From a virus, in IMG/VR virus record IMGVR_UViG_3300045988_147264, positions 32,001-96,000 of that record: a stretch of DNA of 64,000 bases; one strand, 5' to 3'. The notes under the pieces are model-generated. The model searched no databases, was not told where the DNA came from, and saw only the letters and a program-made list of their open reading frames with translations. The first letter of the stretch is position 1, and the number at the start of each line of letters is the position of its first letter. Shown here one piece after another: positions 31,293 through 41,345 of this stretch. The position numbers were made by a program, and so were the translations under genes.

Positions 31293-32158
31293 CTGTAAAG
31301 CTTATACCTACACGTGCTAGTGTTGTAATACCTGTCAGGTATCTCAACCAAGTGATCCTCCGAGGAACCACATACAGGGCACCTCACAACGCCGTCATCA
31401 AAGGTCGCTGCGACATTCGGATGACTCTTCATCCACGGCCTCAGCTTAAGGTAAACCAACTCAAGAATCTTGACATCCTGCTGGTTGTACACAGCCATCT
31501 CCTCAAGAGCCTTTCCGTCACCGTTGAGACACTTCTCCCACAAGGAGAAATCAGTGCCTATCTTGTGAGGAAAACCAAAGTAACCGGCCAGGGCGTCAAG
31601 CTTGTTGCTCTTGAAGCCAAAGTATCTCTTCGCGACATCAAGGGTGTCTATGATATAATACGGAGAAGGACACTTCAGATCGTTCAATATAAACCTCGTG
31701 TTCATCCACGGCACGTCAGCCCTCTTGGCGTTATGCGCCACAACGACATCTGCCTCGTCAATAAGCTTCCACAATGACCGCATGATCCTCGAGTCATCCT
31801 GCCTAAGCGCCTCCTCGGAAGTCAGCACGTCACACATCTCCTCGCCGCCGTAAAGCCACTTTGCGGACCAGCACAACATGAACCAATCTTGCCTGACATG
31901 ATCCCACGCGATGTCCTGTTTCCATAAACCCCAGATATAACCCAACATAGGAGCTGTCTCGGTATCAAAGATCAACACCTTAGGCATCTTTTTGGGAGGA
32001 CCAACAACAACATTGTAACCACCGCTTGACCGCACAACATCCTTAGCCCCGCGTATGTCGTCAACACTGCATTTCAAATAACGGCTCAACTTGCCAGAAC
32101 CCATACCCAAAAGGTACGGCTTGCGCCTCATGCGCTCAACTATCTCATCAAAAACCAT
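31202..32158 (-). CDS. DnaQ-like DEDD 3'-5' exonuclease with C-terminal zinc ribbon
   Basis: Exo I LIFDTETAP, Exo II VVAHNAKRAD, Exo III YNQQDV. C-terminal CPVCG...CIDCG. Confidence 0.6.
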   Translation of the reverse strand: MVFDEIVERMRRKPYLLGMGSGKLSRYLKCSVDDIRGAKDVVRSSGGYNVVVGPPKKMPKVLIFDTETAPMLGYIWGLWKQDIAWDHVRQDWFMLCWSAKWLYGGEEMCDVLTSEEALRQDDSRIMRSLWKLIDEADVVVAHNAKRADVPWMNTRFILNDLKCPSPYYIIDTLDVAKRYFGFKSNKLDALAGYFGFPHKIGTDFSLWEKCLNGDGKALEEMAVYNQQDVKILELVYLKLRPWMKSHPNVAATFDDGVVRCPVCGSSEDHLVEIPDRYYNTSTCRYKLYRCIDCGAVVRGRENLNKDNKRVVPLTSPAR

Positions 32159-33561: not shown

Positions 33562-34050
33562 TTGACTGCCAAATCATCACTATTTATGGCACGTTTCACA
33601 TTGGGCAACGCTGGTGCCACTAAGACCAGCAACGATTTCTACGCAGGCGCAAACGCATTCGGTGCAAAAAGAGTCGAACTTCCTCGCATTCCAATCGATG
33701 TCGATGAGACGTCTGGGCTTGCTGTCTGGAAAATCGCCGGCAACTCCGACAAATCCAAGGGCGCGATAACACCAGATCGTTACTTCGCAATCCTGTCGGG
33801 CACCGTGGTCGAGAGAACCCGCACAACCCGCGACGGCGAAGAATTCATCACCAAAGAGATCGAACTGACCTGCGCGCAGGCTGGAACGGACGACACTCAC
33901 GGCACCTTCAGGGTAAGCCTGCGTTGTTCCTCCGAATCTCAACTCGTTGTCGGCGAGAGCGTAGACACAACAAAAATTGAAGCGCTCCCGTTCCTCAATC
34001 CGCTCGACAACAAAGTGCGCACCTACTACGACGCACCTGCTGCTCAGTAA
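33562..34050 (+). CDS. hypothetical protein encoded in a GC-rich island (composition atypical for this genome)
   Basis: 162-aa ORF (MTAKSSLFMARFTLGNAGATKTSND...) with protein-like composition. A fully overlapping antisense ORF is judged an artefact of high GC. Confidence 0.35.
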   Translation: MTAKSSLFMARFTLGNAGATKTSNDFYAGANAFGAKRVELPRIPIDVDETSGLAVWKIAGNSDKSKGAITPDRYFAILSGTVVERTRTTRDGEEFITKEIELTCAQAGTDDTHGTFRVSLRCSSESQLVVGESVDTTKIEALPFLNPLDNKVRTYYDAPAAQ

Positions 34051-34099
34051 TACAAACAGCGCCAACACCCGCTCATAACGGCCGGGTCGCGGCGCTTCT

Positions 34100-34800
34100 C
34101 TTTATTGGCGTCAGGGCATCTTAGACCAACATCTTGGGTGACTTGACGCCTTAGATCATCTCGCGCTACGACATACAGCGCCGGTATATATTATGTATCC
34201 AATAGTTTAAGCTATCCATAGCTTAAGCTAACCGATAGTTTATGCTATCTCTCCAGGAAGACCAACATTTGCGGCCATAGCCTCGCTAAGCCGCACCGTT
34301 CATCAAGCCATTCACTTTGGTCCTCCTGGAAGATTAGTTTAACCACCGGTTGCCTATTGGGCCATTATGTGCCGCGCTGCTACTATAGTATGCATAACTA
34401 TACCTTATATTATATAGGTATATCTTATGCTATCCATTATTTAAACTATTGGAGAGTTTAAGTTTACTATGGTTTATGTATTATACCGCGAGATGACTTT
34501 GAGTGAACCACAAGTAAAACAACGCCTCTTTAAAGGTAAATAGACTAACAAACAGCTGACTAGTAACTACGGTGAACGTCCATCTAATAGTCGAAATATC
34601 CTTTCTCTTGGCGGTTGTTTTACTTGTGGCATTACTATATTAGACCACACCTAACGCATTGATACTGAGTGTCTTTTCTATCGATGAGATTATTTAATCA
34701 TTGATAGCTCTGATACTCCCCCCACAAGCCTTAATGTTTAGGTGTACTAGTATCCTAATACACTCAAAGTAAGACAGTCATTACTCATTTGTCGTGAGAT
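34100..34800. repeat. non-coding repeat/palindrome hub (candidate replication origin or regulatory region)
   Basis: Perfect palindrome AGCTTAAGCT (34220-34229). Inverted pair CCAATAGTTTAA (34199) / TTAAACTATTGG (34441). 13-bp inverted repeat CCACAAGTAAAAC (34508) / GTTTTACTTGTGG (34626). Direct repeats ATAGTTTAAGCTAT / ATAGTTTATGCTAT, TATGCTATC x2, GACCAACAT x2. No ORF over 60 aa. Confidence 0.5.
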
Positions 34801-34815
34801 ACGTTTGTAGTGCTG

Positions 34816-34935
34816 GGCCACATTGCCTGATTTGGGGTAACACAAGACACATTTTTAACAGAATATACATAAGTTAAGTATTGCGCCAATTATCAAATGT
34901 CTTGTGTTTTTATGGTTCGAGTCCATGTGTGGCCG
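34816..34935 (+). tRNA. tRNA-like gene with about 48-nt insertion (perfect acceptor and T-arm; interior non-canonical)
   Basis: Acceptor GGCCACA/TGTGGCC (7 bp), T-arm TATGG-TTCGAGT-CCATG. Interior has a 9-bp helix CACAAGACA/TGTCTTGTG enclosing 48 nt. GTCGTGAGAT motif 15 nt upstream. Confidence 0.4.
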
Positions 34936-35228
34936 CTTATGCGCATGTAATCACATTTTAATTCGACTTTCCATCTGTTTTTGTAATTGAGGTTAGATAT
35001 TAGTTGTTACTTGCTAAAAACAAAAAAAATCCAATGTTCTAAGCATTGGTGATGGCGATAATATGTTTATTGTGAAATAAACATATTGGTAACACTGTGA
35101 GGTATTACAGTCATCATGATTACATGTGCATATTGTATATTGTGAATCTTTTCTTTAGTTATGTATTAAGTTTTAGTGTTATTGTATCATGCCAAGACAT
35201 GTCGTGAGATATAATCGAGGCTGGTTAT

Positions 35229-35341
35229 GGTCATGTAGCTCAGTATGGTTCAGAGCGGCGGCGATGTTAGATTAGTTATGTCAAAAATATTCTGATTGAT
35301 ACAAAGCCCGCAGGTCGCTGGTTCAAATCCAGCCATGGCCA
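35229..35341 (+). tRNA. tRNA-like gene with about 40-nt insertion in the anticodon region
   Basis: Acceptor GGTCATG/CATGGCC, D-arm GCTC-AGTATGGTTCA-GAGC, T-arm GCTGG-TTCAAAT-CCAGC, variable AGGTC. Anticodon stem GCGGC/CCCGC (one C-C) flanks a 44-nt segment. Anticodon not assignable. GTCGTGAGAT 18 nt upstream. Confidence 0.45.
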
Positions 35342-35422
35342 CGATGTTGTTTAACATTTTGTAGTAAAACATACATAATTGTTATGATGTTTCGTCGTGA
35401 GATGAGGTGTCATAAGATCGAT

Positions 35423-35494
35423 TGTTGTGTGATGTAATGGTTAGCATAGGAGATTTTGGTTCTTCTCGTAGAGGTTCGAGTCCTCTCACAACAA
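35423..35494 (+). tRNA. tRNA-Gln (anticodon TTG)
   Basis: Acceptor TGTTGTG/CACAACA, D-arm ATGT-AATGGTTA-GCAT, anticodon arm GGAGA-TTTTGGT-TCTTC, T-arm AGAGG-TTCGAGT-CCTCT. GTCGTGAGAT 19 nt upstream. Confidence 0.75.
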
Positions 35495-35553
35495 CAAATC
35501 AATCGGGAGGTTGGTTTCCGCTCAAACAATAATCCATGGATAAAATTGAGCGG

Positions 35554-35625
35554 GAGGCGATAGTTCAGATGGTTAGAATACTCGAGACGCGTTGGGGGAA
35601 GTTGGTTCGAGTCCAACTCGCCTCA
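35554..35625 (+). tRNA. tRNA-like gene or pseudo-tRNA with non-canonical anticodon arm
   Basis: Perfect acceptor GAGGCGA/TCGCCTC, D-arm GTTC-AGATGGTTA-GAAT, T-arm GTTGG-TTCGAGT-CCAAC. The 17-nt anticodon region CTCGAGACGCGTTGGGG has a G-G mismatch, no U33, and two adjacent 6-bp palindromes (CTCGAG, ACGCGT). Confidence 0.35.
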
Positions 35626-35630
35626 CAAAT

Positions 35631-35715
35631 GCCTTGGTGGTGAAATGGTAGACACGAGGGACTTAAAATCCCTTGGACAGAAATGTCCGTATGGGTTCGA
35701 TTCCCATCTGGGGCA
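35631..35715 (+). tRNA. tRNA-Leu (anticodon TAA), type II with long variable arm
   Basis: D-arm GTG-AAATGGTAGA-CAC, anticodon arm AGGGA-CTTAAAA-TCCCT, variable arm GGAC-AGAAAT-GTCC, T-arm ATGGG-TTCGATT-CCCAT. Acceptor GCCTTGG/CTGGGGC has three G-U pairs. Confidence 0.7.
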
Positions 35716-35750
35716 CAAAACAAATAACATAATGTTTTCTTCCAACATTT

Positions 35751-35871
35751 TAAGGTTAAGCAAGTCAAACCGGACGAGGTTAAAAGACTGGGCACGGAAA
35801 TGAGTTATGGTCAATACTCACATTAATCAAAATTGTATCGGGCTGTCGAGCCCTGCCATTGCTTAACCTTA
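35751..35871 (+). ncRNA. candidate structured ncRNA closed by a perfect 13-bp helix
   Basis: TAAGGTTAAGCAA (35751-35763) pairs with TTGCTTAACCTTA (35859-35871). Internal hairpins GGGCT-GTCG-AGCCC and GAGT...ACTC. Directly downstream of tRNA-Leu. Confidence 0.35.
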
Positions 35872-35926
35872 ATTTTTGTAGATTAGTACTTAAGAAGTTA
35901 TAAATTAATATCGTTATATAATTGCT

Positions 35927-36355
35927 ATGTGTTGGTTATCTAATAAATTAAAAATAAAGACCGCTAAAAAAGACATTGCTGTTTGGAAAGTTGTCCTTTT
36001 TGATAGAAGAAAAGGAATTTATGTATCTCCTATTATTAATTATCGTTATATTTTAGGCGTAATTTATAAAGTGGAAATGATTTTTAAAGTAAATAATTAT
36101 CCTTTAATAGGAGGGCATGATGGGTTTCATTCCTTTTCTAATAGAGTATATTACCGTTACTTTAATAACAAAATTCACATATTCAAAAAGCGCATTTTTG
36201 CAGAGGATGAACATGTATTTAACATTAGTGGTAATGACGGTTTTAACTTTGCAATAGCCAAAGGACGATTACCAAAAGGCACAAAATATGCAATAAATAA
36301 AAATGGTGAAATAATCTCATCTAGTATAGTTATAGATGATTTTATTGATTTGTAG
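35927..36355 (+). CDS. hypothetical protein encoded inside the tRNA cluster (AT-rich, Asn/Ile/Lys/Phe-rich)
   Basis: 142-aa ORF with noticeably lower GC than neighbouring genes. Ends 15 nt before tRNA-Ile. Confidence 0.4.
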   Translation: MCWLSNKLKIKTAKKDIAVWKVVLFDRRKGIYVSPIINYRYILGVIYKVEMIFKVNNYPLIGGHDGFHSFSNRVYYRYFNNKIHIFKKRIFAEDEHVFNISGNDGFNFAIAKGRLPKGTKYAINKNGEIISSSIVIDDFIDL

Positions 36356-36370
36356 CCACAACTTAAAATC

Positions 36371-36443
36371 AGGGCGTTAGTTCAGTGGTTAGAGCACGAA
36401 GCTTATACCTTCGGAGTCAGGGGTTCAAATCCCTTACGCCCTA
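36371..36443 (+). tRNA. tRNA-Ile (anticodon TAT, reads AUA)
   Basis: Acceptor AGGGCGT/ACGCCCT, D-arm GTTC-AGTGGTTA-GAGC, anticodon arm CGAAG-CTTATAC-CTTCG (perfect), T-arm AGGGG-TTCAAAT-CCCTT. Confidence 0.7.
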
Positions 36444-36579
36444 CTTATAGATTTTCTTTAGTTCCTGGATCATGGCCAGGCTGTGTTCTTCTGAAAAGAA
36501 ATTCAAAAAGCTTACAAAAATCAAATGTAGGTGGGAACATGGTAGATTAAGTGGAAACGATCTGGAGAAAATCTATTTT

Positions 36580-36776
36580 GATCTCGTAGCTCAGTTGGCA
36601 GAGCACAATATTTCAGACAATAGTCCAAACCACAAAAACTTAAAGATATAAGGTTCATCCCTTACACTTCTCAGAAATGATGGAGGATAGTTTAATGAAA
36701 ACATTAAGTTTGCCTATATAAAAGCAGGTGTGGCAGGTTAATATTGAAGTCGCGGGTTCGATTCCCGTCGGGATCA
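36580..36776 (+). tRNA. tRNA gene interrupted by about 124-nt insertion in the anticodon loop (Lys-TTT, opal-suppressor TCA or other depending on splice site)
   Basis: 5' part: acceptor GATCTCG, canonical D-arm GCTC-AGTTGGCA-GAGC, anticodon 5' stem CAATA then TTTCAGA... 3' part: ...AA-TATTG (perfect partner of CAATA), variable AAGTC, T-arm GCGGG-TTCGATT-CCCGT, acceptor CGGGATC. Total 197 nt. Confidence 0.55.
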
Positions 36777-37040
36777 CACAATATATAAAAATAGTGGATA
36801 GGCCTGGAAGTAGCCATTCCTTAAAGAGTAATTGACCACCCGATCTATTAACGCTCCTTGGTAAAAGAGGAAAACGCAACTTAGTGGGATAAATGGAATA
36901 AGAAATGTAATGCACAAATCTGTATAACAGAGAGCATAAGATTCAATCTTTTACAGAGAAAACTGAAAAGGTAGTTGTATAACATCTTTGTAAGAGATAA
37001 ATTTATTTTTGGTGTAATAACACGCTATTTTTATTATTTT

Positions 37041-37113
37041 CTTCATGTGGCGAAGTGGCTAACGCGGCGGTCTGCAAAACCGTTATTCGTGGGTTCGAGT
37101 CCCACCATGGAGT
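37041..37113 (+). tRNA. tRNA-Cys (anticodon GCA)
   Basis: Acceptor CTTCATG/CATGGAG, D-arm GCG-AAGTGGCTAA-CGC, anticodon arm GCGGT-CTGCAAA-ACCGT, T-arm GTGGG-TTCGAGT-CCCAC. Confidence 0.6.
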
Positions 37114-37141
37114 CTAAGTTAAACAAATAAAGACAAACATC

Positions 37142-37411
37142 ATGGACGTAAAAACTTTTAACGAATTCTTTAACGAGCTCGCAAATGAGCAAAAGCGCAA
37201 CATTGATAATGTTGTTCATTACAGATATTCAAACAAGCCGGCAGTTGTAGCTACTGTAGATATGCCGAAAAATGAAAGAGTCCCAAGCTACAGGGTTGTT
37301 CGTTTCCTCGAATCCCAAGGAATCAAATTTGATTACCTTGCGTACGACAGAGAAAAATGCCGTTACTATGCTATGCTTAATAAAAATAGCTTTGAGAGAT
37401 GCGAACAGTAG
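37142..37411 (+). CDS. hypothetical early protein
   Basis: 89-aa ORF, first gene of the rightward module. Confidence 0.5.
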   Translation: MDVKTFNEFFNELANEQKRNIDNVVHYRYSNKPAVVATVDMPKNERVPSYRVVRFLESQGIKFDYLAYDREKCRYYAMLNKNSFERCEQ

Positions 37412-40547: not shown

Positions 40548-41345
40548 TTGCACAAGTCACAAATCGCTGTGTTTGTGGCTTATGTTTTAACTAAAAAAGA
40601 CATGCAGTATTATTTAAAAATCGATACGTGCTTCAAGCGCGTACAAGACAAAGATAATCCTTTGTTTAACTGTATTATTCCTGACGAATTCACTCGGGAT
40701 GAATTCGCTGTTCTACAGGATTGCAGATGGTTGGCTACTGAAAAAGTTGACGGTACAAACATGTCATATCATTTCAGATATGAAGCCAATCCGACGGGTA
40801 ATGAACCACCGCTCGTGGATATTCTTGAGATTCATGGTAAAACTCCGGACTCTAAGATACCTATTCCTTTAATCGAGAAGATGCAGTCTCTTGTTTCCAA
40901 GGAAGACTTTCATAGGTTGTTCCTTAGAGAAGATAAGCCTAACTCGCTTGTCGATGTTTGGATTTTTGGTGAAGGTTATGGCAAAAAGATTCAAAAGTTC
41001 GGCAATGATTACATCAGTAATGGCGTGAATTTCATTGTCTTTGACATCAAAATCGGCAATATTTGGCTCACAAGAGGATCCGTAGAGGAGATTTGTCGGG
41101 AGTTACGCCTTGACATTGTGCCTATCATTGATTATATGACCTTAAATCAAGGTATAAGACTTGTTGAAAAGGGTTTTAAGTCAAGGGTTGCAGAGAATGA
41201 AAACCTTAATGCCGAGGGACTTGTGCTGTCAGCGCCATGTATGATGCTTGACAGGCTCGGCAACAGGATTGTCACCAAGATTAAGACATGTGACTTCAAT
41301 CAGTTAAAAGCAAAACTCAAAAGTAATGGAACAGTTCTCGGTTAA
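40548..41345 (+). CDS. ATP-dependent RNA (or polynucleotide) ligase, nucleotidyltransferase superfamily
   Basis: Motif I ATEKVDGTNMSY (KxDG), motif III NFIVFDIKIG, motif IV AEGLVLSAP, motif V RIVTKIKT. 265 aa, the size of phage Rnl-type ligases. Confidence 0.6.
   Translation: MHKSQIAVFVAYVLTKKDMQYYLKIDTCFKRVQDKDNPLFNCIIPDEFTRDEFAVLQDCRWLATEKVDGTNMSYHFRYEANPTGNEPPLVDILEIHGKTPDSKIPIPLIEKMQSLVSKEDFHRLFLREDKPNSLVDVWIFGEGYGKKIQKFGNDYISNGVNFIVFDIKIGNIWLTRGSVEEICRELRLDIVPIIDYMTLNQGIRLVEKGFKSRVAENENLNAEGLVLSAPCMMLDRLGNRIVTKIKTCDFNQLKAKLKSNGTVLG

Follow-up and report, generated by a model that had tools for sequence, protein, structure and literature searches.

A Group I Intron Relic in a tRNA-Lys(UUU) Gene and Candidate tRNA-Shaped RNA Genes in the tRNA Cluster of a Crassvirales Phage

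The transfer RNA (tRNA)-Leu(UAA) genes of cyanobacteria and plastids carry an IC3-type group I intron, and the tRNA-Ile gene of Azoarcus carries a group I intron of ~205 nucleotides (nt). In archaea and eukaryotes, tRNA introns located at position 37/38 are spliced by proteins, the EndA endonuclease and a ligase. The tRNA cluster of phage T4 contains, in addition, the species 1 and 2 RNAs (rnaC and rnaD), which are stable, non-decoding, ~120–140 nt long, and co-processed. Recent work on tRNA group I introns has dealt with tRNA-Asn and tRNA-Asp of Patescibacteria (PMC13011429). In the papers on crAss-like phages PMC7886860 and bioRxiv 10.1101/2021.08.26.457843, group I introns are mentioned in protein-coding genes only, and our literature searches for tRNA introns and tRNA mimics of these phages gave no match. 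Here, we analyze three interrupted tRNA frames, designated (a), (b), and (c), in positions 32,001 to 96,000 of the IMG/VR virus record IMGVR_UViG_3300045988_147264 (a stretch of 64,000 nt, hereafter “the window”). A first-pass annotation had interpreted the frames either as tRNAs with a novel class of short introns or as tRNA-like RNAs. We found that (c), judged by comparison with its alleles in related phages, is a tRNA-Lys(UUU) gene carrying a truncated group I intron relic. The account that we consider probable for the locus as a whole is that (c) is a Lys gene with an intron stump and that (a) and (b) are tRNA-shaped small RNA genes without an anticodon loop.

The window was searched with a rule-based frame scan, which required a T-loop, a T stem of 5 base pairs (bp), an acceptor paired at 7/7 positions, U8, and a D stem. 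Exactly three interrupted frames, (a), (b), and (c), passed the scan, compared with a mean of 0.12 and a maximum of 1 per window in 100 dinucleotide shuffles. The frames are thus real, with insertions of 44–124 nt in the anticodon region at the coordinates originally reported, and all three recur in contigs of related phages (referred to below by locus numbers, L001 and so on). Across 34000–37400, the window is matched at 100% identity by L082, a separate assembly from Logan that is independent of it. Each frame has the elements of a canonical cloverleaf (7-bp acceptor, D arm, and T arm with a TTCRANY loop), the D arm of (a) being atypical at 3 bp. ARAGORN called none of the three by default; the intron search recommended in the first-pass annotation recovered (b) and (c) and did not recover (a). 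In an Rfam search of 34400–37300 at E ≤ 10, none of the inserts matched a ribozyme, an intron, or any further family; of the three frames, the tRNA model matched (b) only, leaving (a) and (c) unmatched. When ARAGORN was applied to every deletion product, 24, 55, and 149 of 273 were called for (a), (b), and (c), respectively, with many different anticodons; since the program is too permissive, this assay does not discriminate. A 7-nt anticodon loop with U33 on an in-register 5-bp stem could not be generated from (a) or (b), where any simple excision leads to A33, and was generated from (c) only once 36614–36737 was removed. Folding of the inserts, also suggested earlier, yielded a continuous helix in two of the frames, 9 bp long in (a) and 7 bp long in (c); the hairpin of (b) is irregular.

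Frame (c) (36580–36776) is composed of a perfect 5′ half, 124 nt, and a perfect 3′ half. The 5′ exon provides U32-U33-U34 and the 3′ exon provides U35-U36-A37-A38; upon joining the exons in silico, 36613 to 36738, ARAGORN called tRNA-Lys(ttt). Three allelic states of tRNA-Lys(UUU) were found at one syntenic position: no intron (L083), a full intron (L001), and a stump (the window). The L083 (ERZ1034878) gene is an uninterrupted tRNA-Lys(UUU) with the sequence GATCTCGTAGCTCAGTTGGTAGAGCACAACACTTTTAATGTTGGGGTCTCGGGTTCGAATCCCGCCGGGATCAC (69.9 bits in Rfam), and is flanked by tRNA-Ile(UAU) and by a downstream block 100% identical to window 36780–36905. In L001 (IMG/VR, ~87% identical DNA), 505 nt are inserted after U34 of the orthologous tRNA-Lys. 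ARAGORN reports this gene as Lys(ttt) i(35,505), and the joined loop reads C-U-UUU-A-A. The two strands of the anticodon stem change together from allele to allele (CAACA/TGTTG, ATACA/TGTAT, and CAATA/TATTG), so that (c) is one orthologous, once-functional tRNA.

The full-length introns of this family reside in tRNA-Leu(UAA) and tRNA-Lys(UUU) genes of L001, L004, L006, L036, L083, and L084 and are 505–680 nt long; L006 has two copies, one of them with an HNH-like open reading frame (ORF). Each intron starts after a U able to form a U·G wobble with a GAGUG guide and ends in a terminal G. A GAAA-capped P2, P3, and P7 are shared, in the order P3-P7-P3′-P7′. When the core segments of the long inserts from L001, L004, L006, L036, and L083 were aligned, the 18 pairs of P2, P3, and P7 were 91.7% paired and 10 of the 18 showed double changes, a level of covariation attained in 0 of 500 shuffles. 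On the basis of manual helix assignment and covariation, all the long inserts belong to a single family of group I introns. With the IC3-type tRNA-Leu(UAA) intron they share the U34/35 site, and with bacterial tRNA group I introns in general the P1 U·G wobble, the terminal G, and the pseudoknotted helix order; they differ in having a Crassvirales host, in also occupying tRNA-Lys(UUU), in their length, and in not being detected by the Rfam model Intron_gpI (RF00028). The tRNA-Leu(UAA) gene is intronless in the window and intron-bearing in the close relative L084, which points to ongoing intron gain and loss.

The insert of (c) corresponds to the 3′ part of such an intron. Two window segments align with the 3′ end of the tRNA-Leu intron of L083: 36619–36644 at 96% identity (the P7 3′ strand and the next segment) and 36703–36737 at 94% identity (from the last P9 hairpin to the terminal G). 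Retained in the insert are the P7 3′ strand AATAGTCC (36619–36626), the P9 hairpins, and the terminal G (36737), and the 3′ splice site is recognizable as GGCAGG/TTAA, compared with GGTAGG/TTAA in L001 and GGCAGG/AAAA in L083 (the slash marks the junction). The guide sequence, P2–P6, the P7 5′ strand, P3′, and P8 are missing: in place of the GAGUG found in L001, L083, and L006, the insert opens with CAGAC and then passes directly into the P7 3′ strand. Neither blastn nor alignment revealed a copy of the catalytic core (P3–P8/P4–P6 with both P7 strands) in the insert or in the whole 64-kb window. Since only 3′ intron segments match and the rest was not found in the 64 kb, the insert is best described as a 5′-truncated relic. 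Compared with the ~205-nt Azoarcus intron, it is a 124-nt 3′ stump devoid of the catalytic core, and to our knowledge it is well below the size of the smallest known self-splicing group I intron. As the 124-nt stump cannot form the catalytic core, the (c) transcript is expected to stay unspliced. A mobile group I intron of the tRNA-Leu(UAA)/tRNA-Lys(UUU) family of related phages probably once sat after U34 of (c), and a deletion or an incomplete homing event would have removed the segment from just past the 5′ splice site to the P7 3′ strand. The unspliced transcript of (c) would be a pseudo-tRNA of the Lys type, its anticodon arm much enlarged.

Two anticodons had been proposed for (c), UUU, with a junction after U34 at the group I position, and UCA, with a junction at 37/38, the latter making (c) an opal suppressor. 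The first of these is correct. Even the caveat attached to the proposal, that a conventional group I intron might have gone unrecognized, essentially describes (c), with a 3′ stump in the window, 505 nt in L001, and none in L083. The opal suppressor has to be abandoned, as the intronless L083 ortholog reads UUU and no TGA recoding takes place. ARAGORN with intron search does call (c) as a selenocysteine tRNA, SeC(tca), with a 124-nt intron at 37/38; the UCA reading arises only because the program fixes the intron at this position. The source of the window is a Crassvirales phage, Steigviridae-like, with a very plastic tRNA cluster. The identity of its TerL is 61.5% to TerL of cr116_1 (Crassvirales, Steigviridae, Asinivirinae) and 55% to TerL of crAss001, and its portal and terminase match crAss-type PHROGs. 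ORFs of 746–1138 amino acids run uninterrupted under table 11, and the TerL alignment is a single piece covering 99% of TerL length. Given these long uninterrupted standard-code ORFs and the one-piece TerL alignment, the phage does not show stop-codon recoding.

Frame (a) has the acceptor GGCCACA/TGTGGCC, the T-loop TTCGAGT, and a continuous 9-bp helix formed by CACAAGACA (34841–34849) and TGTCTTGTG (34898–34906), which encloses 48 nt and contains no bulge-helix-bulge. Seven distinct variants of (a) were available (the window, L087, L097, L084, L001, L092, and L099). Over the 24 pairs of its four helices, 99.4% of the cells are paired in the seven variants, the only broken cell being one U·U in L001. 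Two pairs are compensatory, acceptor pair 5–68 (AU/GU/GC) and stem pair 27–43, the first of the long helix (CG/UA), and five further pairs vary on one side and are still paired (wobble-compatible). In slid-partner controls, the pairing falls to 27–46%. The insert behaves differently. It is 48–60 nt long and indel-rich in relatives, it hardly folds (minimum free energy (MFE) of −0.7 kcal/mol and z +0.94 in the window, and MFE of 0 to −4.5 kcal/mol in relatives), and only a short AAGTATTG motif is conserved in it. Across relatives, the identity is 85–100% for the frame and 48–92% for the insert. In comparison with the two most distant relatives, whose neighboring protein is ~80% identical, the frame is 85–87%, the insert 48–58%, and the flanks 60–72% identical. 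The comparison shows that the frame of (a) is under selection. Position 33 is A in every 7-nt loop that can be assembled from the flanks with the stem kept in register. From this comparative evidence, (a) is a selected tRNA-like RNA rather than an intron-containing tRNA. When 86 further loci were searched with a covariance model of (a) (~1.3 Mb in all, the window included), no additional member was recovered, so the family is confined to one genus-level lineage. In blastn searches against the intron family and all loci, the inserts of (a) and (b) matched orthologs only.

The two halves of the anticodon stem in (b), GCGGC (35258–35262) and CCCGC (35307–35311), do lie 44 nt apart as the first-pass annotation stated; their pairing is imperfect, with either a C/C mismatch or one bulged C. 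The Rfam tRNA model matches (b) at 50.2 bits, 46 nt standing where the anticodon loop belongs. ARAGORN with intron search calls it Asn(gtt) with a 38-nt intron, a structure that has a forced G·A pair and a 3-nt variable loop. In every combination of flanks that keeps the 27–31/39–43 register, position 33 is A. Four variants of (b) are available (the window, L097, L084, and L001), with inserts of 44–46 nt in the form of a conserved hairpin, and the window insert differs from that of L001 by one substitution. Four pairs of the insert helix vary one-sidedly and are still paired, one pair breaks, and changes in the T stem and the anticodon stem are wobble-compatible. A comparison with 191 tRNAs encoded at loci of related phages gave no convincing parent of either (a) or (b). 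The 3′ half of (b) (T arm and acceptor strand) exactly matches the Salinisphaera tRNA(CAU), whose acceptor and D arms are similar as well. When this half was used to scan genome contigs, Salinisphaera tRNA(CAU) genes were the only matches, and no direct ancestor was recovered; a Met/Ile2-type origin of the (b) frame may be faintly indicated.

Frames (a) and (b) also share an upstream motif with a genuine tRNA gene. The window contains four exact copies of TCGTGAGAT, and three of the four are located 15–19 nt upstream of (a), (b), and tRNA-Gln. In L001, L084, L087, L092, L097, and L099, clusters of 3–4 copies occur in the tRNA-like region only. The shared motif suggests separate, similarly expressed small-RNA genes, and it is possible that TCGTGAGAT is a phage promoter or processing signal. 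In the mechanism we propose, (a) and (b) would be small tRNA-shaped RNA genes, each behind the same motif as tRNA-Gln. The anticodon loop would have been swapped for the 9-bp helix with a floppy 48–60-nt loop in (a), and for an irregular hairpin of roughly 20 bp in (b). By virtue of the acceptor/T-arm module, both may be substrates of RNase P, RNase Z, and CCA addition, and the processed products would be stable, non-decoding tRNA mimics. Our best guess for the role of (a) is that it acts as a decoy for, or occupies, tRNA-binding factors (e.g., anticodon nucleases), or else punctuates the transcript. The T4 species 1 and 2 RNAs resemble (a) and (b) by description, the difference being that (a) and (b) keep the cloverleaf frame save for the anticodon loop. 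Transfer-messenger RNA (tmRNA) is also similar in that an acceptor and a T arm are combined with an anticodon arm turned into a long helix with a large insert. However, the third acceptor pair is C3-G70 in (a) and U3·G70 in (b), not G3·U70, and neither a tag frame nor pseudoknots are present: the inserts are indel-rich with scattered stops, and the Rfam tmRNA model gave 13.9 bits, to the T arm of (c) only.

Several observations weigh against this account. The group I assignment of the long inserts rests on manual helices and covariation, since RF00028 did not match L001 (at E ≤ 10) or L004, L006, L036, and L083 (at E ≤ 1). That the relic in (c) is unspliceable is only probable, judging by the core elements it lacks. 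For (a), the shuffle control is modest (25 of 500). The L097 copies of both (a) and (b) have T-loop changes and have lost C56, which suggests decay in the L097 lineage. For (b), there are no double compensatory changes among the four variants, its divergence is about that of neighboring DNA, and it is missing in L087, L092, and L099 (in L087, the (b) leader is joined directly to tRNA-Gln). With four variants, no double change, and absence from relatives, (b) may be a tRNA gene of recent origin, either in decay as a pseudogene or acting as a tRNA mimic.

The alternative that survives best, which we nevertheless regard as unlikely, extends decay to the whole locus: all three frames would be dying, functionless tRNA genes, scarred by imprecise group I intron loss or by other indels. 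Frame (c) is clearly an intron scar, (b) is absent in L087, and tRNA genes and introns are gained and lost between close relatives, with a Gln-Cys fusion through the shared T-loop in L097 as an example. Other odd tRNA-like genes with enlarged loops exist as well (e.g., L099 930–1018), and the window itself contains a “tRNA-Ala(CGC)” with A33 and a poor anticodon stem. Against decay, lineages whose neighboring protein is only ~80% identical have the insertion of (a) in common, and between them the frame, with its compensatory pairs, is much better preserved than the insert; neither (a) nor (b) resembles the intron family, and each keeps its own upstream motif. The earlier fallback interpretation as tRNA-like RNA stands for (a) and is plausible for (b); (c) is a Lys gene with an intron relic.

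Two other proposals give the frames a function in defense. In the first, which we consider doubtful, (a), (b), and possibly unspliced (c) would form a new Crassvirales mimic family, born as intron-decay scars and then selected through tRNA-like processing and titration of defense nucleases or tRNA-binding factors. In the second, slightly less probable, (a), (b), and perhaps unspliced (c) would be anticodon-less decoys titrating defense nucleases or other tRNA-binding proteins. Phages are known to respond to anticodon nucleases by repairing the cleaved tRNA or by encoding modified tRNAs of their own, as exemplified by T4 Pnkp/Rnl1 acting against PrrC and by T5 tRNA variants. The decoy proposal would fit the preservation of a tRNA body from which the anticodon loop, the usual cleavage target, has been eliminated, and the presence of a phage RNA ligase of the tRNA-repair kind; it is purely inferential, a decoy has no obvious need for a loop as large and floppy as that of (a), and (b) is dispensable in close relatives.

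The first-pass annotation had considered help from a phage RNA ligase in processing. The ORF at 40548–41345 indeed belongs to the RNA ligase family. Its supposed role in splicing of the split tRNAs is not supported: L085, L087, L092, L098, and L099 all have the gene, some of them in the absence of (b), (c), or both. A Pfam search of 10 neighboring ORFs revealed no endonuclease or kinase family, and a bulge-helix-bulge (3-nt bulges spaced by 4 bp) is absent from the folds of (a), (b), and (c). The resemblance to archaeal and eukaryal tRNA introns consists in short anticodon-region insertions and a ligase gene, with the 37/38 site in (c) contradicted by L083. That all three frames are tRNAs with new short introns, either autocatalytic or removed by an endonuclease and the phage ligase, with (c) perhaps an opal suppressor, is very improbable: the intact tRNA frames (that of (a) being selected), the freely evolving, intron-like insert of (a), the ligase gene 4 kb downstream, and the ARAGORN calls for (b) and (c) are compatible with such introns, but (c) is accounted for by group I homology and has the anticodon UUU in a phage that does not recode TGA, (a) and (b) always yield A33 and never U33, the ARAGORN structure of (b) needs a G·A pair and a 3-nt variable loop, neither a bulge-helix-bulge nor an Rfam ribozyme or intron family (E ≤ 10) was detected, and the conservation of the ligase is independent of (b) and (c), with no endonuclease or kinase in the 10 ORFs. 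The novel class of short introns, self-splicing or ligase-dependent, put forward in the first-pass annotation is not supported. The features that enter our preferred account, a Lys gene with an intron stump and two tRNA-shaped RNA genes, are compiled in Table 1.

Table 1. Coordinates of the interrupted tRNA frames and of associated features in the window.
Feature	Position	Strand	Basis or remark
TCGTGAGAT motif, putative promoter or processing signal	34792..34800	+	15 nt upstream of (a)
(a), candidate tRNA-like RNA gene	34816..34935	+	acceptor, 3-bp D stem, 9-bp “anticodon” helix, T arm, discriminator G
(a) insert, 48-nt A/U-rich loop capping the 9-bp helix	34850..34897	+	essentially unstructured
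TCGTGAGAT motif	35202..35210	+	18 nt upstream of (b)
(b), candidate tRNA-like RNA gene	35229..35341	+	canonical acceptor, D arm, AGGTC variable loop, T arm
(b) insert, irregular extended hairpin prolonging the anticodon stem	35263..35306	+	44 nt, fold
TCGTGAGAT motif	35395..35403		upstream of tRNA-Gln
tRNA-Leu(UAA), intronless in the window	35631..35716	+	ortholog in close relative L084 interrupted after U34 by a group I intron
(c), 5′ exon of tRNA-Lys(UUU), through U34	36580..36613	+	intronless L083 and intron L001 alleles
(c), 124-nt group I intron relic	36614..36737	+	similarity to 3′ end of intron family
(c), 3′ exon: U35 U36 A37 A38, stem, AAGTC, T arm, acceptor, discriminator A	36738..36776	+	
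RNA ligase family gene	40548..41345	+	PF09414 6.3e-13, phrog_548

The interrupted frames belong to the plus-strand tRNA cluster, just right of a divergent junction near 34 kb, and other unusual elements were noted in this region. The divergent intergenic region contains, at 34170–34249, tandem-like repeats ATAGTTTAAGCTATC / ATAGCTTAAGCTAAC / ATAGTTTATGCTATC, which are perfectly conserved in L001 and may be an origin or an operator array. In L092–L096, the first ~1600 nt are of interest in that five independent assemblies of a related phage all break within ~430 nt upstream of the (a) ortholog, in AT-repeat-rich sequence; the breaks may mark a genome terminus or a terminal repeat beside the tRNA-like cluster. 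Between (a) and (b), a two-hairpin structured element is located at 35025–35125 (z −3.85). Its second hairpin is kept in L092 via G·U pairs, which implies a plus-strand RNA, and in L001 and L087 its loop bears TTGTGAGATAA, similar to the TCGTGAGAT motif. The “tRNA-Ala(CGC)” mentioned above (35554–35626) has, in addition to A33 and its poorly paired anticodon stem, G3-C70 and not G3·U70, a 6-nt loop, and an Rfam score of 45.8 bits, and is probably a non-canonical or decaying tRNA-like gene.

A structured element of ~125 nt is found at 35744–35874. It is closed by a 13-bp stem, AAGGUUAAGCAA.../...UUGCUUAACCUU, has an MFE of −38.2 kcal/mol (z −3.44, with 0 of 200 shuffles as stable), and matches nothing in Rfam. 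With ~90% conservation in L083 and in L001, in the latter as the immediate upstream neighbor of tRNA-Lys, it may represent a new non-coding RNA of phages. The possibility that it supplies the core of a trans-acting split ribozyme was considered and rejected, as the element is present whatever the intron state (L001 and L083) and has no similarity to the core. On the other side, (c) is adjoined downstream by a 126-nt non-coding block (36780–36905), in which the window, L001, and L083 do not differ (100% identity, against a regional identity of ~87%). The block is weakly folded (z +1.06) and may be a protein- or DNA-level signal.

Unusual small RNA genes were also noted in relatives. In the Gln-Cys fusion of L097 (6676–6760), tRNA-Gln contributes the 5′ part and tRNA-Cys the 3′ part, joined via a shared GGTTCGAGTCC T-loop; this deletion by tRNA-gene recombination illustrates the plasticity of the cluster. 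In L015 (2395–2650), a tRNA-Arg(UCU)-like gene is split in the anticodon region by ~180 nt that hold another complete tRNA; the intact allele is found in L018 (2194–2385). Odd tRNA-like genes are present in L099 (930–1018, with an 18-nt “anticodon loop”), L092 (1051–1115), and L087 (5745–5812). ARAGORN misses or miscalls them, and a TCGTGAGA-type motif is located upstream of those in L092 and L099. Two crAss-like relatives encode RNAs of known families: a Pistol ribozyme near the tRNA region (L004 7274–7340, minus strand, 62 bits at a gathering threshold of 34.5) and a tmRNA (L036 3663–4072, minus strand, 60.6 bits, E 3e-21).

The analysis disposes of an attractive but incorrect conclusion, namely that a gut phage has an opal suppressor and a new class of short introns. 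It also shows that the fixed 37/38 placement of introns by ARAGORN can produce a false tRNA-SeC or suppressor call from a group I remnant. Alleles without an intron, with a full intron, and with a truncated one are documented for a mobile group I family that moves between tRNA-Leu(UAA) and tRNA-Lys(UUU) of crAss-like phages. Finally, (a), a lineage-specific, structurally selected, and non-decoding tRNA shape, would be a concrete candidate for tRNA mimicry by a phage.

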